Assembly (NCBI GenBank): GCA_002347295.1 | Contig: DDXZ01000030.1 | Coordinates: 45,216 to 109,215 of the forward strand | Direction of reading: 5' to 3' | Length of the DNA: 64,000 nucleotides | From: Dehalococcoidia bacterium UBA2247 | GTDB lineage: Bacteria; Chloroflexota; Dehalococcoidia; UBA2247 | Shown: positions 2,424-62,849 of the stretch, one piece after another | How positions within the stretch are numbered: the stretch's first letter is position 1 | How the letters are laid out: every line of letters begins with the position of its first letter | Notes under the pieces: model-generated | Seen by the model: the letters and a program-made list of their open reading frames with translations, nothing else | The model's database searches: none | Told to the model about the DNA's origin: nothing | Made by a program: the position numbers and the translations under genes

Positions 2424-3020
2424 ATGAATAAAAAGGGGAAAATACGTTCTTTTATCGCAATAGAGTTACCATCAGAGGTGCGTGATCAATTACGTATTCT
2501 CCTCGATAATAATCTGAAAAATAAATTAGATATTGTGGCAAGCTGGGTAAAACCCGAGAATTGCCACTTAACATTAAAGTTTCTGGGAGATGTGCCTCCG
2601 GAAGAAATATCCCGGATTACCAACACTCTCATATCAGTGACACAGGATATATCACCATTCTCCCTGAGGCTTGATAAGCTCGGAGTGTTCCCTAATATCA
2701 AGCATCCTCGCATCCTCTGGATAGGAATAGCAGGAGACACACAACAGCTTATATCTTTACATAACAATATCGATAGCAAATTAAAGCTGATAGGATTTCC
2801 TTCAGAAAATCGCGCGTTTGCTCCCCATCTAACACTCTGTCGTATAAGAGAAAATTTATCAGAATCAACATGCAAAAATATAAGTGATGTTTTAAACACG
2901 AACTGGATAGAAAGCTCTCATTTTCAAGTTTCTGAAATTGTATTATTCAGAAGTGAGCTCACACCAAAAGGACCAATACATAGCCGACTCGCTACTGCAA
3001 CATTTAAAAAAGCACAGTAA
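2424..3020 (+). CDS. thpR: RNA 2',3'-cyclic phosphodiesterase (2'-5' RNA ligase family, ThpR/LigT)
   Basis: Two H-x-T-x motifs (HLTLKF and HLTLCRI) are present in a ~200-aa protein. This is the 2H phosphoesterase signature. Confidence 0.7.
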   Translation: MNKKGKIRSFIAIELPSEVRDQLRILLDNNLKNKLDIVASWVKPENCHLTLKFLGDVPPEEISRITNTLISVTQDISPFSLRLDKLGVFPNIKHPRILWIGIAGDTQQLISLHNNIDSKLKLIGFPSENRAFAPHLTLCRIRENLSESTCKNISDVLNTNWIESSHFQVSEIVLFRSELTPKGPIHSRLATATFKKAQ

Positions 3021-3100
3021 TAGTGATTTCGTCGTATTGCGCGCTTACAGGCTATGTGATAGTATAATTTGTCTGATTTCATTTCATAACAAATACAAAT

Positions 3101-3140
3101 GGGCCCATTAGCTCAGCAGGTTAGAGCACAGTCCTGGGCA
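3101..3140 (+). other. tRNA 5'-portion-like remnant (acceptor + D-arm + anticodon-stem-like, no T-arm)
   Basis: GGGCCCATTAGCTCAGCAGGTTAGAGCACAGTCCTGGGCA has a canonical D-arm (TAGCTCAGCAGGTTAGAGC). No matching 3' anticodon stem or T-arm follows. The first 12 nt form the palindrome AATGGGCCCATT. The sequence abuts the integrase N-terminus. Confidence 0.4.
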
Positions 3141-3159
3141 AAATGACTTAAAGTCATGT

Positions 3160-4047
3160 TTGAAATATTATTTGTTATCTTGCAAAGTAGACGGTAAAAC
3201 ACAAGCTACTATTGATACCTATCAAATGCGGCTAGGGCTGTTTGTTGAATTCGCCCAGGGTAATGGCTTTTCCATGACGGATCAGCTTACCGGGAATAAT
3301 ATCCGGATGTTTCTCTTATCGCTCAATGACCGGCATTTACAGCCGGCAACGATCCATGCTTATCATCGGGCACTCCGGACCTGGTTCACCTGGTTGGTAA
3401 ACGAAGGTTTCTTGGAGAAAACCCCGATGCAGAATATCAAGCCACCGCGACTACCCAAGAAGATTCCTCATCCTTTCAGCACGCAGGATCTGGAGAATTT
3501 ATTGCTGCTTACCTCAGGACATCACTTTGTCAATATCCGGAACCGTGCTATAATCCTCGCATTCCTCGATACCGGTCTCAGATTAAATGAGTTACTCAAT
3601 ATCAATCTTGTTGACATAAGTACAGAATACGATACAATTAGAGTATTCGGTAAAGGTAGCAAAGAGCGTATTGTTTCCCTAGGGAAAGTATCACGAAAGG
3701 CCTTTTTGAAATACCTTATGTTGAGAAGTGACAGATATCCTAATTTTTGGGTTACTGAGGAAAGACGTCCGCTGCAGAGGGACGGGCTACGCATTATTAT
3801 CCGGAGGCTTTGTGAAAGAGCAAACATTACGGATGCAAAATATGGCGCCCATACTTTCAGACATACCTTCGCAACGAACTCAATTCGCAACGGAGCCAAT
3901 ACCTTCTTTGTATAAAGCTTGCTGGGGCATTCCACTCTGGAAATGACCAGGCGATATGCTGGGATGATAAACTCGGAAACAGCAATTGAAAAGCATAATG
4001 AATTCAGTCCTGCGGATAGACTATTTAAGGTAGAGTATCTCTTATGA
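3160..4047 (+). pseudogene. tyrosine recombinase/phage-type integrase interrupted by an in-frame TAA (3913-3915)
   Basis: An N-terminal core-binding region is followed by catalytic motifs (HTFRHTF ... LLGHSTLEMTRRYAGM with the catalytic Tyr). The single TAA separates '...GANTFFV' from 'SLLGHS...' and sits where Gln is conserved. The reading frame is otherwise continuous to TGA at 4045-4047. Confidence 0.7.
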
Positions 4048-4107
4048 ATTAATAGCTGGTAATAATTATGTCTTAGTGGCTGACAGTATTTATTACAAGG
4101 TTAGATA

Positions 4108-4524
4108 ATGAATTACGATTACGACATCTTCGAGGATCTTTATGAGGAGGAATCTCCCGAGGGACGTCCGCGGGATGTAAAAATTGATGAAGCTAGAGCG
4201 AGTTTAGAGAAATTTTTTAATCAACAGGACAGAGAAGTATTCCATGGGAAACAAGTAGAAGTATTATTTGAAAAGACATTCTTTCATTGGATTACAAGCA
4301 AAGCATTAGATGAGATGGTAAAAGAAGGAAAAATTATAGGGTCAGAAGAAATGCCTTTATTAGGAAAAACTAGAGTAAAGTTCGTATTTAACAAAAAATA
4401 TAGGGACCGTAAACTAGAAATGAGAGATCATCTGAGGGTTGTTCGTGGATATTCTACACCACCGTTACCCGGTGATTGTGGTAGACAAGCAGAAATAATG
4501 TTCGAGAAATGCTTTGGCTGGTAG
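4108..4524 (+). CDS. hypothetical protein (island cargo)
   Basis: 138-aa ORF with an acidic N-terminus and no recognisable motif. It overlaps the next ORF by 11 nt. Confidence 0.35.
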   Translation: MNYDYDIFEDLYEEESPEGRPRDVKIDEARASLEKFFNQQDREVFHGKQVEVLFEKTFFHWITSKALDEMVKEGKIIGSEEMPLLGKTRVKFVFNKKYRDRKLEMRDHLRVVRGYSTPPLPGDCGRQAEIMFEKCFGW

Positions 4525-4963
4525 AGGTTTTAAGATATGTGGGGAGAAAGTGAAGGAGTACAAAGGGAAAAAGTGGGATAAAACAAATAACGACTTAGAT
4601 TTTGTAGTGGAAAGGGATGGGGTTACTTACGGTAGTGAAGTAAAAAATACGTGGAGTTATATAAACAGAGATGAGATGATTGTGAAATTGGACATGTGCA
4701 AATATTTTGGGGTGAGACCATTATTCATAATGAGAGGATCACCAAAAAGCTATAACTGGGAAATTAAAAGATGGGGTGGGTATGCTATGATATTTGTAGC
4801 ACAAATTTATCCATTGTCCCAGGGGATGGTGGTGAAAGAGATAAAAGAGAAACTAGGGTTGGAAGCAGATTGTCCAAGGGCAATACCGAGTGGGATAATA
4901 GATAGGTTCATTAACTGGGAAAAGGATAATTTGGGGGATATTAAAAAAAATCCTCAATATTGA
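4514..4963 (+). CDS. hypothetical protein with a PD-(D/E)xK-like nuclease motif
   Basis: The start is TTG. The segment 'DLDFVVERDGVTYGSEVKN' fits the D...(D/E)xK spacing of restriction-endonuclease-fold nucleases. The frame is blocked upstream by TAA at 4496-4498, so it is a separate or frameshift-fused ORF. Confidence 0.35.
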   Translation: MAGRGFKICGEKVKEYKGKKWDKTNNDLDFVVERDGVTYGSEVKNTWSYINRDEMIVKLDMCKYFGVRPLFIMRGSPKSYNWEIKRWGGYAMIFVAQIYPLSQGMVVKEIKEKLGLEADCPRAIPSGIIDRFINWEKDNLGDIKKNPQY

Positions 4964-5062
4964 GGGTAGAATAGGCACAGAAATTGGTACCCCTATGAAT
5001 ACTAATTTGTCTAGTAAATATACTGAAATAGCTATTGACAAGATGTCAACTTATAGATTAAC

Positions 5063-5442
5063 ATGAAACTGAAACAGGTAAAAAACGGTATAATATTTAA
5101 TATTTTCGCTATCATACTAGATAATGGTGTATGTCCGGTTGAAGAATTTCTTGAGCAGTTAAAAATAAATGACCCATCTTCGCTTAAATCATTCGTTACC
5201 ATATTCAATAGGCATGCAGATCATGGTTCTTTGCGAAACGAAAAAAGTCTAAAGTTCTTAAAGATAGAGAGAATTTACTAGAGTTTAAAACCGATCATGG
5301 GGATAGAATAATGTATTTTTATTTGCCAGGTAAAATGACAGTTTTAACACACGGATTTCATAAAGGTGCACCAGAGTCTCAAGAATATGATAGGGCTGAA
5401 TCAATAAGAGACCGCTATTGTCAGGAGATTAAAAATGGTTAG
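5063..5442 (+). pseudogene. HigB/Gp49-like (RelE/ParE superfamily) toxin, frameshifted at an A6 tract (5241-5246)
   Basis: The N-terminal 72-aa ORF and the +2-frame continuation 'ENLLEFKTDHGDRIMYFYLPGKMTVLTHGFHKGAPESQEYDRAESI' together match the Gp49/HigB toxin pattern. Inserting one A in the A6 run restores a ~126-aa protein. Confidence 0.6.
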
Positions 5443-5812
5443 CAGTGATGCAGAATTAATTTTAGAGAAATACTCAAATGAATATGCCAAGGATCCCGAT
5501 TTTATAGCAGAGGGACTTGCAGTTAAAATAACGGAGGAAATGCTTGAATGCCTCGAGAAAAGGGGCCTCAATCAGTCTTGGTTGGCAGAGAAGATGGGTG
5601 TTTCAAGAGAACGCATTTCTCGTATACTTAATGCAAAGCCGAACATGACTCTATTAACCATTGCTAAAATCGCAGTCGCGCTCGATGTGCAACCTGATGT
5701 TTGCCTTAATGCTTGGGATCTAAGATTAATACAAGCTGATTCTGACATACAATCTCAAAAACCTGCCGATATATGGACAGCAAGCGATCTCATGTTTTCC
5801 GAGATACCATAA
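5435..5812 (+). CDS. HTH XRE-family antitoxin (HigA-like)
   Basis: The helix-turn-helix 'WLAEKMGVSRERISRILN' is present. The start overlaps the toxin 3' end by 8 nt, which is typical toxin-antitoxin coupling. Confidence 0.6.
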   Translation: MVSSDAELILEKYSNEYAKDPDFIAEGLAVKITEEMLECLEKRGLNQSWLAEKMGVSRERISRILNAKPNMTLLTIAKIAVALDVQPDVCLNAWDLRLIQADSDIQSQKPADIWTASDLMFSEIP

Positions 5813-5896
5813 CCTGACAAAATAGAATCCGTAACCGCATGAGGAACAGATGAGAATTTACTTGAAACAACAAGAGTAGTTTAGGAGATACTGAAT

Positions 5897-6316
5897 ATGA
5901 AATTATCTGCAAATAATAAAAACATCTTAGTAAAAGAGATTAGAACTGCCGCCGAATACATGAGCAAAGCTAATAATGCTCAGCAAAAAATGTATTTCTT
6001 TAGTGCGGTTTTTGGAATATCCAATCGGCTGATGAATCTTGAATTTGACCCAGAATTAGTCTTCATTCATCATGTCACTGAGAGTACCTTTAAAAACATC
6101 AATACAAATTTGATGATGATGTCACAAGGGCAATCTCTTCCCTCTATCCCGCCATCTCTATTTAATAAATTGGAGGATGCTCTCGTTCAGTTAGCTAATT
6201 ATATTGAAGAAGGGAACCCAACTTATCCTGCGCTGGAGAGAATTTCCAACTTATCTTACAGTACATCAGGCAATGGATATTATCTCTTTCTTAAGGGTAT
6301 GCTTAAAATAGATTAA
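5897..6316 (+). CDS. hypothetical protein
   Basis: 139-aa ORF with no recognisable domain. It is co-oriented with the next ORF across a 62-bp gap. Confidence 0.4.
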   Translation: MKLSANNKNILVKEIRTAAEYMSKANNAQQKMYFFSAVFGISNRLMNLEFDPELVFIHHVTESTFKNINTNLMMMSQGQSLPSIPPSLFNKLEDALVQLANYIEEGNPTYPALERISNLSYSTSGNGYYLFLKGMLKID

Positions 6317-6378
6317 TTTTTATCGAGTTTAAGCAGGTTATCAATAAATTGGGAGGATTGTAATAATAGTATAAGCAT

Positions 6379-7215
6379 ATGCCTTCTTTGCATGGGCCCA
6401 GATTGAAGCTTGGCAGGGCAGAGGAACATCTCAGCACCATCAAGGCGATTATTCAGAGATTCCTCGAATCTAATCCCTATTCCTTTATTCTCCAACCTAA
6501 TCCTAATCCCCCGGATTATGTCCTCCGCGCTAACATTAACCAAGTTCCTCCGATTCAACTGTCTTGCATTGTCGGTGATTTCGCTCACAATGCTCGCTCT
6601 GCTCTCGACCTGCTGGTCTATCAACTCAGTGACCTCGTAGAAGGGGATAAAAATAGACTTAAACTGCAATTCCCGATTTTTAATAATGCTGTCGATTATT
6701 CCAAAAATGAAAAGGCTTATCTAAGCGGAGTCAAACCTGAATATAAGACAATTATTGAGAGGCATCAACCTTACAAGAGACCTCAACGGGATGGAAGTGA
6801 TGCTCTTACAATCCTCCAAAGCATCAACAATACAGATAAACATCGTCTTATCAATGTCGTTGGTGCGATTGCCAACTTGGACTATTTTAATTTCGATAGT
6901 TCCAGTGGATTGCCCGACAATATCAAGCTCGAAGCAGGAGCTCATATTAGAGTTGGACAAAGCTTTAATTTTGGTAATGGATTCACTGGTAGTAAGATTG
7001 GGAATGGGGCAATAACCAAAGACAATGCAATAGTCGCCAAACTGACTATCCCGCAACCCGAAAAAGTGAAGGTGACTCCGGACTATCATGTCGCGATACA
7101 ATTTTATGTAACTGACCAAACGGTTAATGGACGCCCGGTAGTGGATACACTAACGCTCATCTATGATGGTGTAAACGAAATTATTAGGGATTTCGAGCCG
7201 TTCTTTCATAAGTGA
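6379..7215 (+). CDS. hypothetical protein
   Basis: 278-aa ORF in a clean long frame with no motif I can place. It is island cargo lying next to an IS. Confidence 0.45.
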   Translation: MPSLHGPRLKLGRAEEHLSTIKAIIQRFLESNPYSFILQPNPNPPDYVLRANINQVPPIQLSCIVGDFAHNARSALDLLVYQLSDLVEGDKNRLKLQFPIFNNAVDYSKNEKAYLSGVKPEYKTIIERHQPYKRPQRDGSDALTILQSINNTDKHRLINVVGAIANLDYFNFDSSSGLPDNIKLEAGAHIRVGQSFNFGNGFTGSKIGNGAITKDNAIVAKLTIPQPEKVKVTPDYHVAIQFYVTDQTVNGRPVVDTLTLIYDGVNEIIRDFEPFFHK

Positions 7216-7370
7216 TTCTTTCATTTCTCAACCTTATACAAAGATGACATAGTCACTAATATTAAAGAGGGTAATATATGACTAAAAAAACACACTAAAA
7301 CCAAAATACATAAACAAAATCCACGTCGGCAAAATAAAAATACTGATACGGGTAATAAAGACAAACATCT

Positions 7371-8288
7371 CCGTAAATATCCGACATTCTTACTCCTTTT
7401 TCTTAAGTAATGGAGGGATCATACCCAGCCCCATATGGGGACGATGGTAATGATAGTGCTTAAGAAATAATTCTACCATGTTCCGATACTCCGGTAAGTC
7501 CTGGATACGATACGTCTGCCAGCCCAAGCATTCTTTTCTCACTGTCCGGTTAAAACTTTCTATATATGATTGTTCATTCTTACGATATGGATGAGCAATA
7601 CGATGGCGATCACAGAATAAACTTACTTCAGTCTTAAATTCAGCTTTAAACTCTGAGCCGCCATCAGTCTGTAGTAAGTGGACATGTTTATCAAACCTTC
7701 TCTCCCTGCTTTGGTAGAGGAATTCACAGCCATACCTTGCCGTAAGCTGGGATGCTAACAGAATATCGGCTTCTTTACTGAAGATATCTACCGCTGTAAA
7801 GGCATAAAGCTCACCAAAGTCTATCGTGTCCATCTGTATTACCTCCCTGGAATGAGAGGCTACCGGTAAAATCCCACGCACTTTATTCTTTTTCCACTTA
7901 GAACGAAGAACATATTTCTCAGCGAGAATTTCATAAATCCTGGGAACAGATAAGGGAATGCCATAATCATGCTCAAGAAAGTACTGGATTTTTTGTCCGC
8001 AACAATCGTATTCTCGCTCTCTGATGTCCCGTATCCGGCGTTTAATGAGTGGGTCTACCTGTCTTCTCTTACGCTCTCCCTTTTGGGCTTGTGCATAACT
8101 ATTCAAGAATTCCAGTAAACCATACGTTTTGCGGGCATGTATCCAGATGCTTATCGTTTCCCGGTGTTTGCCCATTCTTTGAGCAATATGGGTCATGGGA
8201 ATACATTGCTCATGGAGTTCCCAACATAGAGTAATTAATGTTTCATTTGTCATATCCATATTCTACATAGAATGTCGGATATTTACGG
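7371..8288 (-). mobile_element. IS481-family-like insertion sequence, complete, 918 bp
   Basis: Perfect 20-bp terminal inverted repeats ccgtaaatatccgacattct (7371-7390) and agaatgtcggatatttacgg (8269-8288) flank a single DDE (rve) transposase gene. Confidence 0.7.
7390..8259 (-). CDS. DDE transposase (integrase core/rve domain), IS481-like
   Basis: An HTH N-terminus is followed by the D (IQMDTIDFG), D (QTDGGSEF) and E (ESFNRTVRKE) motifs. Confidence 0.75.
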   Translation of the reverse strand: MDMTNETLITLCWELHEQCIPMTHIAQRMGKHRETISIWIHARKTYGLLEFLNSYAQAQKGERKRRQVDPLIKRRIRDIREREYDCCGQKIQYFLEHDYGIPLSVPRIYEILAEKYVLRSKWKKNKVRGILPVASHSREVIQMDTIDFGELYAFTAVDIFSKEADILLASQLTARYGCEFLYQSRERRFDKHVHLLQTDGGSEFKAEFKTEVSLFCDRHRIAHPYRKNEQSYIESFNRTVRKECLGWQTYRIQDLPEYRNMVELFLKHYHYHRPHMGLGMIPPLLKKKE

Positions 8289-8329
8289 AAATATTGCGCG
8301 TTATTGACATCCGACACCATATTCTTTAA

Positions 8330-12002: not shown

Positions 12003-12056
12003 CTTCTATTTGATATGGACGGCATTATAACGTTATTTTTATGTCTTTGCAAAGAG

Positions 12057-12094
12057 GGCTCTCTTCCGGTAACATTTTTATTTGAGTTGACACG
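12057..12094. repeat. 38-bp repeat (ggctctcttccggtaacatttttatttgagttgacacg), inverted partner at 25321..25358
   Basis: It is an exact reverse-complement match to 25321..25358. In both copies it is preceded by a short hairpin ending in GCTCTCTT. Confidence 0.7.
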
Positions 12095-18479: not shown

Positions 18480-21400
18480 CTATTCTTCTGATACAGTCAT
18501 TTTCAGACCTAATTCGATAATTTGTTTTTGCAGATCATCACAATATTTTACCAGAAGAGACGGCATTTCTAATCTAACCATAGCATTATCATTTGACACT
18601 AATACTTCAACTACATCTTTACCGGGATACTCTCTCAGAATATCTAGTGCCCCACGCAAAAGCATGATATCGCCTTTTTCATTACCACTCTGGTTAATGT
18701 TTAATGTAATCTTTTTATTTTTCGCCTCAATAACCGGTTCTTCTTTTAGTTTCAATATCGAATCCTCAGTGGCGATAGAATCAAATGATTGAACCTCGTT
18801 ACAGACTACACCAGGACGGTCATCTCTCATTCTAACTACACCGCGTATTACAATTATGTTACCTTCGTACCATAAATCCCTGGTACGAGAATAAAGTTCT
18901 GCCCATGCAGTTACTTCCATATTACCATCCAGGTCTTCCAGTTCCGCAATAACAAAAGTTGTTCCTTTACGCGTTACCAGAGACCTTACTTTAGCAATAA
19001 TACCAGCAATAACCACTCCCCTCCCTGCCATATCAGCATCAATCTGACCGCAGGTAGTAGTAGTAATCGTCTTGAGTTTTTCTGTCGCATGTACAAAAGG
19101 GTGCTCCGAGAGATAAGTGCCCAGCATTTCCTTCTCCCAGGCATGTCGCTCTGCGGGAGAAATTTTTACCTCTGGTAGTTCCAGGACAGGAAGAGGCATT
19201 GATGCCTTTGCTCCCCACATATCAAACATAGTAACCTGCCCCGTTTCTTTCATTTTCTGCTCACGTTGTGAAGCAGACAAAATTACCTCGACACCCTGTA
19301 ATAATTGACCACGGTCGCCTATTTTATCTAATGCTCCTGCCTTTATTAAACTTTCCAGAGTTTTCCTGTTCATAACACGCAAATCAACCCGCCGGGAGAA
19401 ATCTTCAACAGATTTAAATTCCCCTCCTGTATTACGTGCAATTATTATGGGATTAATAGCTCCCTTACCAACATTTTTTATGTCCCCCAACCCAAAACGA
19501 ATAGCCGGCGTTCCATTGTCATCTTGTGCAATACTGAATGTAACATCACTACTGTTTATATCAGGTGGAAGAACATTAATACCCAAACGGCGACATTCAT
19601 TAATTGCAGAACTAATCTTATCCACCTTTCCGGAATGTACTACCAGAAATGCAGCCATATATTCCAGTGTAAAGTTCGCCTTCAAATATGCTGTTTGATA
19701 AGCAACCATAGCATAGCTCACACTATGAGCTTTATTAAAAGCATACCCGGCAAATGGCTCGATAAGAGCAAATATATCCTCTGCTACTTTTTTAGAGAAA
19801 TTTTTATTTGCGGCTCCATCCAGAAATTTCTGCCGCTCTTTTTTCATCACTTCTGGAATTTTCTTGCCCATCGCCTTACGTACTATATCTGCCTCTCCCA
19901 GGCTATATCCGGCAACGGACTGCACTATACGTAATACCTGATCCTGATAAACAATAACACCATATGTCTCTTTTAAGAATGGCTCCAGTACAGGATCGGG
20001 ATACTTGATAGGTTCCTTACCATGTTTCGCTTTAATAAAGGTAGGAATATGTTCCATAGGACCAGGTCGATAAAGCGCAATCATCGCGGCAATATCATTA
20101 AAGGTAGTTGGTTTAAGTTCTTTGATAAAACGCCTCATTCCGCCACCCTCAAGCTGGAAAACACCTTGTGTTTCTCCGGAACAGAATAAAGCAAAAGTCT
20201 TCGGATCATCCAGAGGAAGTTTATGCAAGTCAATATCAATTCCTCTGGTACTGGCAATGATATCCTTCGCTTTGGCTAAAACAGTTAAATTAGCCAGTCC
20301 CAGGATATCCATCTTTAATAGTCCCACGCGAGCCAAGCTTTCCATACTATATTGGGACATCACCATTCCCGTCTCGGAATCTCCTATTCTCTGTAGTGGC
20401 ACACGCTCAATAAGAGTATCATGGGCGATAACTATTCCTGCCGCATGAGTGCTAGCATGACGGGAAAAGCCTTCCAGCTGTCTTGCTGAATCTATCAAGC
20501 TTCGAATAATTTTATCCTGTTGGTATATATCCTGAAGTTCTGCACTTTCCGCAAGTGCCTTATCCAGAGTAATATTCAATACCTGTGGCACCAGTCTCAC
20601 GACACGGTCAACATCACTATATGTCATGCCCAGAGCACGACCAACATCACGCAATGCAGCACGAGCACCCAGAGTTCCAAAAGTTATGATTTGTGCCACA
20701 TGGTCTTCACCATATTTTTGCGAAATATAAGAAATAACCTCGTCCCGGCGGTCATCCTGGAAATCAAGATCAATATCTGGCATTTCTCTACGTTCAATAT
20801 TGAGAAAACGTTCGAAAACAAGTTCACTGGCAAGCGGATCAATATCAGTCACTTCAATACAATATAAAACAAGACTCGCGGCAGCACTGCCACGTACTCC
20901 AAAAAGGATATTTTGCTTTCTCACAAAAGATACGATGTCCCATATAACCAAAAAATAGTTGGCAAATTTTGTTTCATGAATAACACTAAGTTCATATCTC
21001 AGACGCTCTTCAATTTGTGGAGTGATATTATCATAACGCCTCTTCAATCCTTCCCAGCAGAGATCATTCAGATAATCCTCGGCATTTTTACTTTCCGGCA
21101 TATCGATTTCCGGAAGAAGAGGCCGACCAAACTCAAGATTTAAATTACACATTTCAGCAATGCGCCCGGCATTTTCTATTGCTTCAGGAATATCCTGATA
21201 TAAATCATTCATTTCCGCAGGACTTTTTAAATAAAAATAATCACCGGGCATCTTCATTCTCTTCTCACTGGAAACAGAGGAGTTCGTCTGAATGCATAAA
21301 AGTAAATCGTGTGCTGTGGCGTCCTTTTGATCAACGTAATGAACATCATTGGTGGCTACAAGAGGAATATCTAATTCTTTACCGATAGAAATTAGCTGGG

Positions 21401-25177: not shown

Positions 25178-25320
25178 ATTGTCACCTCTTTATAAATCAT
25201 TAATAAATAACCCTAACGAGTTAACCTGAATCAGGATTACTACTTTAGCCAATAGTACCTTTCCCGCAATTTTGTGTCAAGAAATACCCCAGAAAATAAT
25301 CACTGGTAATCCACCCCTCT

Positions 25321-25358
25321 CGTGTCAACTCAAATAAAAATGTTACCGGAAGAGAGCC
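25321..25358. repeat. 38-bp repeat, inverted copy of 12057..12094, adjacent to the IS5-family remnant
   Basis: Exact reverse-complement identity over 38 bp. It lies between rny and the decayed IS5 transposase. Confidence 0.7.
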
Positions 25359-25513
25359 ATCCCCAGAGGGACTGCTCTCTGGCAACAAAAGTATGACAAG
25401 CGTACCAGTGTCGAGAGAGCTTACTCCGAAGAGAAGGGCAGTCACAAGTTATCCGATCCCCGAGTGAGGGGATTATCTAAGGTCAAGATCCATGTTTATC
25501 TAGCTCTGTGTGC

Positions 25514-61077: not shown

Positions 61078-61320
61078 ATTTCTCTCCTCCTTTTAAGATC
61101 TGTAGATAATTTATTCAAATAAATTAAGAAAATAATACGACATTAACAGGCAACTTGTCATTTTTTCATCAGTGATATATCACTTTAGCGATTAACCCGA
61201 CGGGGTCCTGTTTCCGGTAACAACTTACCACAAATAAACAAGCTCAGTGACGCAATACTGGTATAGGATAGAAAAAACGTACACCAAAGTCATGTAAAAT
61301 AGAACGACGGAGGTGTCATG

Positions 61321-62498
61321 ATGAAAGGGATCCCATGAGGGAAGTACACGAAAGAGTTCCGCCAGGAAGCAGTCAAACTGGTTATTGAGGAGAAGTTGTC
61401 CTGGGGGAAGGCCGGACGGTGGTTAAATCTGGCGCCATCAACCATTGGCAACTGGGTCAAGGCTTACCAGAAAGGCAAACTGGGAGAGATCGGCAAGGCG
61501 TACCGACCTCTGACCGATACCGAGATGGAGCTGGCGAGGACCAAGAAGGAACTGTTTGAAGTGAAGATGGAGCGGGATATCTTAAAAAAAGCAGTTGCGT
61601 ACTTTGTCAGGGAGTCGCTGCCCGGTACGCGGTCATGAGAGTAATGCGGCTCACTTATCCTCTTCCCCTTCCAGGTCGTATGCTTAAAGTCTTCTTAAGT
61701 GGTTACTACGGCTGGATAGACCGCCCGCTATCAAAGCGAGATCTGGAGGAGTTGCGGCTGGGGTTGGAAATCAAGGTGGCGCATCGGCGTACCCGGCAGA
61801 CTTACGGAGCGGAGAGATTACAGCATGAGCTGGCGGAGCATGGTGTGAGAGTGGGGATTTGCCGCCTCAAGCGTCTGCGGCGGAAGCTGGGAATAAGATG
61901 TAAGCAGAGGAAGAAGTTCAAGGCTACTACGGACTCGAAGCATAAACTACTGGTGGCCCAGAATCTGCTTAAGCAGGAGTTCAAGGTGTCTGCCCCTGAT
62001 AAGGTATGGGGTCAGCGACATCACCTATGTACCCACGGATGAAGGATGGCTGTACCTGGCCGGGCACAAGGACCTATTCAACGGAGAGATCGTGGGCTAT
62101 GCTATGGGGGAGAGGTTGAGTAAGAATCTGATAGAAGAATCTCTTCTGCGAGCAGTATCGTTAAGGCCGCCGGAGAAGGAGATATTGCATCACTCCGACC
62201 GTGGTGTTCAATACTGCAGCGGCGAGTACCGGAGGTTGCTGAAGTGTTTTGGGCTGGTAGTAGTATCAATGAGCGGGAAAGGGAACTGTTATGATAATGC
62301 ACCGATGGAGAGTTTTTGGGCATTCTCAAACAGGAATTGGTGTACCACAGTCATTACCGCACTCGGCGGGAAGCGATGGCTGAGATAAGAGAATACATAG
62401 AGATCTTCTCTAACCGGGAGCGTTTGCAGGTCGGGTTGGGTTATTTATCCCCGGCAGCATACATCCAGAAATATTACCAGGGATTACTGGTAGCATGA
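61321..62498 (+). mobile_element. IS3-family element remnant (orfA with in-frame TGA at 61336-61338; orfB DDE domain broken by at least 2 frameshifts)
   Basis: orfA HTH/leucine zipper ('YTKEFRQEAVKLV...MELARTKKELFEVKMERDILKKA') with an A6G slippery run at 61585-61591. orfB rve pieces are ORFs 61635..62042, 62092..62388 and 62316..62498. Confidence 0.6.
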
Positions 62499-62849
62499 GA
62501 GGTTTGGTTTACGTTATTGACATCCAACACCAAACACTTCGGAGTAATTATAGAGATTACCCTGTATTACCTCTACCTTATTCTCAATACCCGCGATACG
62601 ATTACGGTTAATAGCAATATCAAAAAAGAACGACTTCTTCACCATCCGCCACAAGCATACGTGCCAGCTCTGTTCCGATAAATCCAGTTCCACCGGTAAT
62701 TAATTGTCATTTTTTTCCACTCCCTTAAATATCCATTATACATTTATACATTACATAAAAAATATTGAAAACAGATAATTATCCATCTAATATGACATAA
62801 CATCATTACTATCCCGACTCAAAACGACGATTGATTCTAGAACAGCGAA

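Follow-up and report, generated by a model that had tools for sequence, protein, structure and literature searches.

An accessory islet between thpR and priA of a Dehalococcoidia bacterium: a conserved third gene of toxin-antitoxin operons next to a putative relic of an IS1595-type element

In the genome of Dehalococcoidia bacterium UBA2247, the chromosomal genes thpR and priA enclose an accessory islet, and the question raised by this locus is whether two neighbouring open reading frames (ORFs) of the islet act together. The stretch of DNA analysed here, hereafter called the window, has a length of 64,000 nucleotides (nt; contig DDXZ01000030.1, positions 45,216 to 109,215), and the islet covers positions 3101-8305 of it. 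A previous annotation without database searches, the sequence-only reading, had proposed the co-oriented ORFs 5897-6316 and 6379-7215, here named P139 and P278, as the best candidate for an undescribed defence or addiction pair. All ORFs which it had listed for the islet are present where it placed them, and its anatomy is accurate, since each feature was recovered between thpR and priA. The interval is probably a strain-variable accessory hot spot, in which five independent selfish modules have accumulated, most of which are decayed. P139 and P278 are assigned to different units, because the third and the fourth of these modules are separate. Both units consist of the following features:

5035-5064, + strand: putative promoter TTGACA-18-TAACAT, located just 5' of the toxin start and matching the consensus at 10 of 12 positions
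5063-5442, + strand: toxin pseudogene of the HigB/Gp49 type (RelE/ParE superfamily), frameshifted by -1 within a run of A6 (5241-5246)
5435-5812, + strand: XRE/HigA-type antitoxin gene, intact (HTH_3 at 2.4e-10; TIGR02607 antidote_HigA at 1.3e-8, which is below the cut-off)
5897-6316, + strand: P139, intact gene for a protein of 139 amino acids (aa), third gene of the toxin-antitoxin cassette
6379-7215, + strand: P278, intact gene for a protein of 278 aa, passenger gene of an element of the IS1595 family of insertion sequences (IS), ISNwi1-like
7233-7271, no strand assigned: relic of the right terminal inverted repeat of an IS1595-type element (window positions 7122-7271 are 71% identical to positions 6756-6906 of contig L007 over 151 nt)

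The description of both ORFs as unknown genes was borne out. They are intact and have no match in Pfam, NCBIfam, PADLOC or PHROGs, yet they represent conserved families with 94 (P139) and 70 (P278) matches, and no housekeeping homologs were found for either of them. Generic XRE matches were all that these libraries yielded when P139, P278 and the nuclease-like protein of the islet were scanned. Remote-homology searches and structure prediction resulted in predicted folds, an all-alpha protein with six helices for P139 and a weakly HEPN-like protein for P278; however, neither could be assigned to a family. The PDB sequence profiles gave nothing for P278, and the only hit for P139 was the Hsp82 middle domain with an E-value of 0.0025 and a domain i-E-value of 0.79, which was treated as a chance match.

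The assumption that P139 and P278 form a single two-gene defence or addiction system rests on their arrangement: they are co-oriented, 62 nt apart, intact and unannotated, and no terminator-like site is located between them on the + strand. The genomic context of their homologs speaks against this assumption. P139 homologs were inspected in 87 loci, to which a metagenome scan contributed 80 and exact look-ups 7, and a P278 homolog was not found beside any of them; conversely, none of the 82 P278 loci contains P139, HigB, XRE or the nuclease-like gene of the islet. Both families have different recurrent partners, namely a toxin-antitoxin pair in the case of P139 and an IS1595 transposase in the case of P278. 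In the window, P278 is preceded by a promoter-like site with a TG extension, and its ATG is located just 13 nt downstream of the point where the DNA starts to resemble the IS1595 element of L007. A joint function of both genes is therefore highly improbable, and the proposed pair dissolves into the third gene of a toxin-antitoxin operon and the passenger of an IS1595-type element.

Judged from its genomic context, P139 is a conserved, hitherto undescribed third gene of HigBA/HicAB-type operons. The 94 close homologs have a length of 130 to 142 aa and are all hypothetical proteins of Chloroflexota or of metagenome-assembled genomes of Dehalococcoidales, and none was found in phage and plasmid collections. 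An exhaustive profile search resulted in 466 clusters at 50% identity, the best 150 of which are all single-domain proteins of 106 to 158 aa. Upstream sequence of 450 nt or more was available for 64 unique loci, and in every one of them an ORF in the same direction, encoding 100 aa or more, ends at most 200 nt from the P139 start. The ORFs directly upstream of P139 encode HTH_3/XRE proteins in 65 of 68 unique cases and HicB in one case; the second ORF upstream matches Gp49 (E-value up to 1e-3) in 38 of 53 unique cases and HicA in one, and most of the others are cut by contig ends. Of 70 unique loci, 27 have an antitoxin gene whose end overlaps the beginning of P139 by 4 or 1 nt. Close relatives of P139 (at least 58% identity) are located downstream of HigB/XRE pairs resembling that of the window, while distant ones (41-57%) are preceded by pairs of another Gp49/XRE clade, whose antitoxins have 150 to 188 aa, and one relative (L079) is found downstream of a HicA/HicB pair.

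The upstream genes have the charge pattern of a toxin-antitoxin system, with a median isoelectric point of 9.6 for the toxins and 5.2 for the antitoxins, that of P139 being 6.4. Pairwise identities of toxin and antitoxin are correlated with a Spearman coefficient of 0.85 and those of toxin and P139 with one of 0.44; for antitoxin and P139, the coefficient is 0.49 in the full set and rises to 0.68 if only the distant clade is considered. Curated models of two-component HigA proteins comprise 81 to 89 positions and end just past the helix-turn-helix (HTH) domain. The antitoxins encoded upstream of P139 carry tails of 36 to 103 aa (median 71) past the HTH, which are rich in Ala, Pro, Ser, Val and Thr and variable in sequence; the tail ends VTA, LSA and LAA recur in one clade and GGAAR and GGTV in the other. 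Some observations weigh against the assignment of P139 as third gene: the cassette of the window is atypical, with a gap of 84 nt between XRE and P139 and the shortest antitoxin tail seen, most of the metagenome contigs are short, and the sampled P139 family largely originates from Chloroflexota-like sources.

Two observations concern the surroundings of related cassettes. The closest full cassette (L012-L015; HigB 72%, P139 68% identical) adjoins genes for a TIR_2-DctP protein of 959 aa, a SLATT-domain protein and a TIR protein of 708 aa, which resembles the context of a defence island. In the Chloroflexota-like contigs L055, L057 and L093, a Gp49-XRE-P139 cassette is located directly upstream of homologs of the amidohydrolase gene found at 1561-2406 of the window, and the cassette of L057 also precedes thpR. 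From this layout it follows that the same housekeeping neighbourhood also draws cassettes on its other side.

The HigB/Gp49-like toxin with an XRE antitoxin, which had been recognized at 5063-5812, could be confirmed by the matches to PF05973, HTH_3 and TIGR02607, the antitoxin being intact and the toxin frameshifted. The toxin ORFs 5063-5281 and 5281-5439 are parts of one HigB/Gp49 gene, whose product matches PF05973 (1.6e-6) only after repair of the frameshift, and the intact toxin of a type II module is thus missing from the window. The antitoxin gene starts with an ATG at 5435, thereby overlapping the toxin stop codon at 5440-5442, and its product extends for about 37 residues past the HTH. 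The poly-A run of HigB consists of A6 in the window and in L002, an independent assembly from the Sequence Read Archive (SRA), and of A8 in the assemblies L004 and L005, both of which are out of frame, while L003 contains an intact allele of 126 aa with an interrupted run. Since the reading frame needs A7, two distinct out-of-frame HigB alleles are in circulation, which suggests that, in this population, slippage recurs or an active toxin is selected against. In contig L046, a Gp49-like fragment of 47 aa (2953-3096) is located upstream of an intact antitoxin gene and P139 (3498-4417); this appears to be another decayed toxin with a persisting antitoxin and P139.

What P139 might do for such an operon can be considered in the light of toxin-antitoxin-chaperone (TAC) systems, in which a gene for a SecB-like chaperone follows a HigBA, HicAB or MqsRA pair and the chaperone binds and protects the variable C-terminal extension of the antitoxin (PMC5105189). 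By analogy, the antitoxin would be the binding partner of P139, with the long Ala/Pro/Ser-rich tail at its C-terminus as the most plausible contact site; P139 would thereby control the stability of the antitoxin and gate the release of the RNase toxin. That P139 acts in this way, like the chaperone of a TAC system, is regarded as a tentative proposal. The combination of a conserved P139 with variable tails counts against it to some extent, as it would be explained equally well by a conserved host partner or by an autonomous function.

Such an autonomous function, possibly enzymatic or ligand-binding, would make P139 a cargo which is stabilised or regulated by toxin-antitoxin operons without acting on them. 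In favour of this explanation, P139 has a mean pairwise identity of 0.54, far above the values of the toxins (0.35) and antitoxins (0.36), is paired with three types of toxin-antitoxin systems and has invariant residues (E14, R44, N47 and a G125-N-G-Y-Y motif) with the look of a pocket; moreover, it is intact in the window and apparently also in L046, although the toxin is decayed. However, its position and order are strictly fixed, with the stop/start overlaps described above and an antitoxin gene upstream in all 64 informative loci, and neither stand-alone nor fused forms occur among the best 150 of the 466 clusters, which come without genomic context. An autonomous P139 is therefore considered unlikely. 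The operon architecture would look the same if P139 was a regulator or adaptor rather than a stabiliser, that is, a transcriptional co-repressor, a protease adaptor which hands the antitoxin (or the toxin) over to degradation, or a sensor of a phage protein by which the module is triggered. Small motifs rich in Ala (VTA, LSA, LAA, KAA, GAAR), which we take to resemble ssrA-like C-terminal degrons, are frequent at the ends of the antitoxins, and SecB-type TAC systems sense a phage protein at the interface of antitoxin and chaperone. On the other hand, P139 has no signature of a DNA-binding or protease-adaptor family, and the degron reading is pattern recognition, so that a role as regulator or adaptor is judged to be quite improbable.

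The second gene, P278, was traced to insertion sequences of the IS1595 family. A scan of species-representative genomes revealed relatives in Anaerolineaceae, Dehalococcoidia, Actinomycetota, Acidobacteriota, Gemmatimonadota, Streptomyces and others. An IS1595 transposase, consisting of PF12762 and a PF12760 zinc ribbon, adjoins the P278 homolog in 22 of the 82 loci. In L007, L108, L136, L164 and L176, inverted repeats with the core GGTAAnTATCCCTTGAC enclose the transposase gene together with the P278 homolog, which results in elements of 1945 to 2063 bp, and the alignment scores of these repeats are above those of all shuffled sequences. These units presumably correspond to the passenger-carrying ISNwi1-type group of ISfinder. 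In the window, the similarity to the L007 element ends at 7271, which is the outer edge of the right repeat of L007, while neither a remnant of the transposase nor a left repeat was found there (tblastn E > 0.07). Since L007-like DNA reaches the edge of the right repeat and the transposase and left repeat are gone, P278 of the window is interpreted as the relic of an IS1595-type element. This interpretation has to face the 60 of 82 P278 loci which lack an adjacent IS1595 transposase, and the window retains a single repeat relic, with about 71% identity to a single comparator.

The conservation of P278 is mainly confined to the N-terminal 160 residues or so, with R73 and D153-K154-H155 being invariant within the motifs GDFAHNARSALD and NNTDKHR. 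The predicted fold combines an N-terminal HEPN-like four-helix bundle with a beta-rich domain; the bundle is weakly HEPN-like, and Vinculin and FAT-type bundles score equally. Membership in the HEPN superfamily was rejected: a conserved Rx4-6H motif is missing, H78, which follows R73, is not conserved, and none of the HEPN Pfam models matches at E-values up to 10. Distant homologs are encoded on actinobacterial plasmids, and distant, unannotated matches of the N-terminal domain were found in phage and plasmid collections. One of them (L189) is gp32 of the Gordonia phage ZiggyZoo (MW601225.1, 27339-28166), a protein of 275 aa which shares the N-terminal domain of P278 (27% identity, E-value 2e-6) and is encoded in a reverse-oriented gene block next to a serine integrase. 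A fold search of BFVD revealed two unnamed viral structural homologs. Taken together, the data weakly suggest that P278 might be a nuclease- or toxin-like accessory protein, which would benefit its element via exclusion, addiction or defence.

The remaining features of the islet and its flanks are the following, the tRNA-like stub and the palindrome having been recognized by inspection of the sequence:

2424-3020, + strand: thpR/LigT-type gene of the 2',5' RNA ligase family (PF02834 at 4e-28), left chromosomal flank
3102-3138, + strand: tRNA-like 5' stub of 37 nt
3143-3157, no strand assigned: perfect palindrome with arms of 7 bp (ATGACTT-A-AAGTCAT), which separates the tRNA-like stub from the start of the integrase gene
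3160-4047, + strand: XerC/XerD-like tyrosine recombinase pseudogene (PF00589 at 1.8e-20)
4108-4963, + strand: frameshifted orphan gene with a PD-(D/E)xK-like motif (ORFs 4108-4524 and 4514-4963, frameshift near 4500-4520)
7354-8305, - strand: complete IS481-like insertion sequence (transposase 7390-8259), which ends 24 nt from the priA stop codon
8330-10762, - strand: priA (Pfam: PriA_3primeBD, DEAD, PriA_C, Zn_ribbon_PriA), right chromosomal flank

Together with the cassette and the P278 unit, these features would give five modules. The first would consist of the tRNA-like stub and the XerC/D-like integrase, which was inactivated by a nonsense codon, and the second of the frameshifted PD-(D/E)xK-like orphan gene. 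The HigB/Gp49 toxin, disabled by poly-A slippage, would form the third module with the XRE/HigA antitoxin and P139; the fourth would be P278 with one terminal repeat, a remnant of an IS1595-family (ISNwi1-like) element which lost its transposase; and the fifth would be the IS481-like element, which is intact.

The tRNA-like 5' fragment beside the recombinase, which had been described before, is only partly supported. The 5' layout of a tRNA is legible at 3102-3138 and comprises the 5' strand of the acceptor stem, U8, a D stem of GCTC and GAGC with G18G19, the 5' strand of the anticodon stem and a CTGGGCA loop; however, the 3' half is missing, neither ARAGORN nor Rfam calls a tRNA, and with z -0.78 local folding does not reach significance. 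The D-arm pattern TWRGCTCAGNNGGTTAGAGCA, which was written after the sequence had been seen, has one match in the window, the stub itself, versus 0 expected. A tRNA-derived 5' stub is thus a plausible reading of this segment. The adjacent palindrome could be a candidate recombinase or repressor site or have arisen by chance. The integrase reaches E-values of about 1e-50 with the XerC/XerD models of NCBIfam, which is under the cut-off. Its ORF (3160-3915) ends at an in-frame TAA (3913-3915), and the C-terminus with LLGHS...RRY continues in the same frame to 4047. The stop codon separates the R..HxxR region from the segment with the catalytic Tyr, leaving no complete catalytic domain in one frame. 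The sister alleles of L003 and L191 have a CAA codon (Q) at this position and encode an intact integrase.

The unit at 4108-4963, which had been described as two ORFs with a PD-(D/E)xK-like motif, turned out to be a single frameshifted gene, and the motif itself was confirmed. A total of 131 full-length homologs, single proteins of about 275 aa, span 91-98% of the reconstructed protein, and D166, E179 and K181 are invariant in the 27 sequences aligned, giving the pattern D...ExK. Based on this conserved motif, the protein can be called PD-(D/E)xK-like; it has no match in Pfam, NCBIfam, PADLOC or PHROGs. In L184-L188, Dehalococcoidales contigs from several samples, the gene is intact and stand-alone between flavodoxin-like and M24 peptidase genes, and the family is therefore not always found on mobile DNA. 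At the other end of the islet, the complete IS481-like element expected beside the priA stop codon was found with both repeats and its transposase. The inverted repeats of 37 nt (7354-7390 and 8269-8305) are 84% identical with a perfect 21-bp core and span 952 bp, and the element is present in a single copy in the window. The transposase contains rve/rve_3 domains, of which rve_3 passes the Pfam cut-off, and its best NCBIfam match is NF033577 transpos_IS481 (3.3e-30, 105.6 bits versus a curated cut-off of 224 bits). A target duplication was not obvious when the flanks were read by eye.

Three genes of the islet are pseudogenes, due to the TAA codon of the integrase, the frameshift of the nuclease-like gene and the poly-A frameshift of HigB, in agreement with the previous description of the addiction and nuclease-like cargo as decayed. 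Could these lesions be sequencing or assembly errors, and all islet genes be functional? Two of the three are single-base lesions and one is located in a homopolymer, which would fit such errors. However, all three are reproduced in L002, which is 100% identical to the window over 3315-7397; the HigB run is A8 instead of A6 in two further assemblies and likewise out of frame; and the difference between TAA and CAA in the integrase is a substitution. Errors as the cause of the lesions are thus very unlikely.

The cargo of the interval varies between strains. Contig names such as Iso3TCLC and NAPDCCLC indicate that the window originates from metagenomes of methanogenic enrichments which degrade hydrocarbons. 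L003 encodes an intact integrase with 81% DNA identity to the window copy, followed by the intact HigB, XRE, P139, P278 and the IS481-like element with 99% identity to the window; the nuclease-like gene is absent. L191 and L004 were obtained from one sample. Between window positions 19762 and 8203, L191 shares 99.6% identity with the window, and this span covers priA, the right repeat of the IS481-like element and the first 19 codons of its transposase. Only the priA-proximal 100 bp of this element remain in L191. Beyond 8203, L191 contains IS3-like fragments, a DUF433/PIN_10 pair, a gene for a protein of 217 aa and then the same integrase as in the window, which is intact and 87% identical at the DNA level. 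Since L191 is nearly identical through priA yet carries different cargo, the interval can be regarded as a hot spot for the swapping of cargo. The description as an accessory islet with a tyrosine recombinase on one side and the IS481-like element by priA on the other thus agrees with the comparison, and a block which is syntenic in all relatives was not found, as L191 and L003 carry other cargo. Identical thpR genes are present on contigs of other samples, which end 7 to 43 nt past the thpR stop codon, before the stub, and contig L057, which is moderately related, has unrelated genes downstream of thpR. One point against an accessory islet is that, among the contigs retrieved, an island-free contig joining thpR to priA was not found.

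Further variation was observed next to the islet and elsewhere. The IS3-like element at 11563-12716 of L191 replaces most of the IS481-like copy beside priA, and fragments of an IS3-like element at 61258-62528 of the window (HTH_Tnp_1, rve_2) are 79-89% identical to it. On the window's own contig, outside the window, a DDE_Tnp_1 transposase gene (L001/L179, 1279-2190) is located upstream of an acetyl-CoA synthetase-like gene; the same gene is missing from the otherwise 99.6% identical contig L180, and this copy therefore represents a further strain-specific IS insertion. In L192 and L193 (NAPDCCLC; GCA_002383345.1), window position 25316 is joined to 12058 in inverted orientation, and a 41-nt repeat (97.6%) is present at both breakpoints (about 12054-12094 and 25321-25361 of the window). 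The junction suggests that the strains are polymorphic for an inversion of 13 kb.

For the annotation of such islets, it follows that neighbouring unknown ORFs may derive from different decayed modules, which can be separated by a comparison of their contexts across metagenomes. In the window, the toxin is dead and the transposase has been lost, so that both modules are relics and the locus serves as a pointer to the two families rather than as a working system. The literature searched contained neither a non-SecB third component of toxin-antitoxin operons nor a description of a P278-type family of IS1595 passengers. Should P139 indeed target the antitoxin, control of toxin-antitoxin systems in the manner of a chaperone would have arisen at least twice, with unrelated proteins, and about 466 clusters at 50% identity would join the small set of tripartite systems, which are now studied as phage sensors. 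In its widest form, the proposal is that P139, as a small protein of helices, represents a second class of toxin-antitoxin third component unrelated to SecB, which was recruited independently by HigB/Gp49-XRE and HicAB pairs, controls antitoxin stability via the long disordered tail and might serve as a phage-sensing trigger in Chloroflexota and relatives, and that P278 is a new nuclease- or toxin-like passenger for the maintenance of IS1595-type elements; this is a conceivable scenario, about which we remain doubtful. P278, for its part, offers a clear example of a minimal IS with a conserved passenger gene.

The locus can be compared with several known systems. As in tRNA-linked integrase islands, a tyrosine recombinase is located beside tRNA-derived sequence at the edge of variable cargo. 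Those islands, however, possess an intact tRNA gene and a direct repeat of its 3' end, whereas the window has a 5' stub and an integrase pseudogene; no tRNA was called at 3101-3140, and a repeat search around the islet gave att-like direct repeats at chance level only. HEPN toxins and Abi proteins such as HepT, the C-terminal domain of AbiA and LsoA contain the Rx4-6H motif; P278 differs from them in the lack of this motif and in the additional beta-rich domain. IS1595 elements with a passenger have a transposase with DDE_Tnp_IS1595 and a Zn ribbon, repeats beginning with GGTAAnTAT, a size of about 2 kb and one extra gene. The relatives of the P278 unit share all of these features, while the window retains only the passenger gene and the relic of the right repeat.

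Two-gene HigB/Gp49 (PF05973)-XRE/HigA modules share with the P139 cassettes the order with the toxin first, the overlap of the genes, the basic toxin and the acidic HTH antitoxin. Unlike these modules, the P139 cassettes contain a conserved downstream gene and encode long antitoxin tails, and the toxin of the window differs in being frameshifted. The closest parallel is found in TAC systems such as HigB1-HigA1-SecB(TA) of M. tuberculosis (Rv1955-57) and HigBAC of E. coli, which have the same gene order of toxin, antitoxin and third gene. A modular third gene linked to HigBA- and HicAB-type pairs is common to both, as are C-terminal extensions of the antitoxin which vary in length and sequence (PMC5105189). 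P139 loci likewise have the co-directional order of toxin, antitoxin and third gene with a pair of the HigBA/HicAB type. The third gene of TAC systems, however, encodes a SecB homolog, whereas P139, with its six predicted helices, has no relationship to SecB, and for this reason the P139 cassettes are not filed as members of the TAC family, but are described as TAC-like in architecture.

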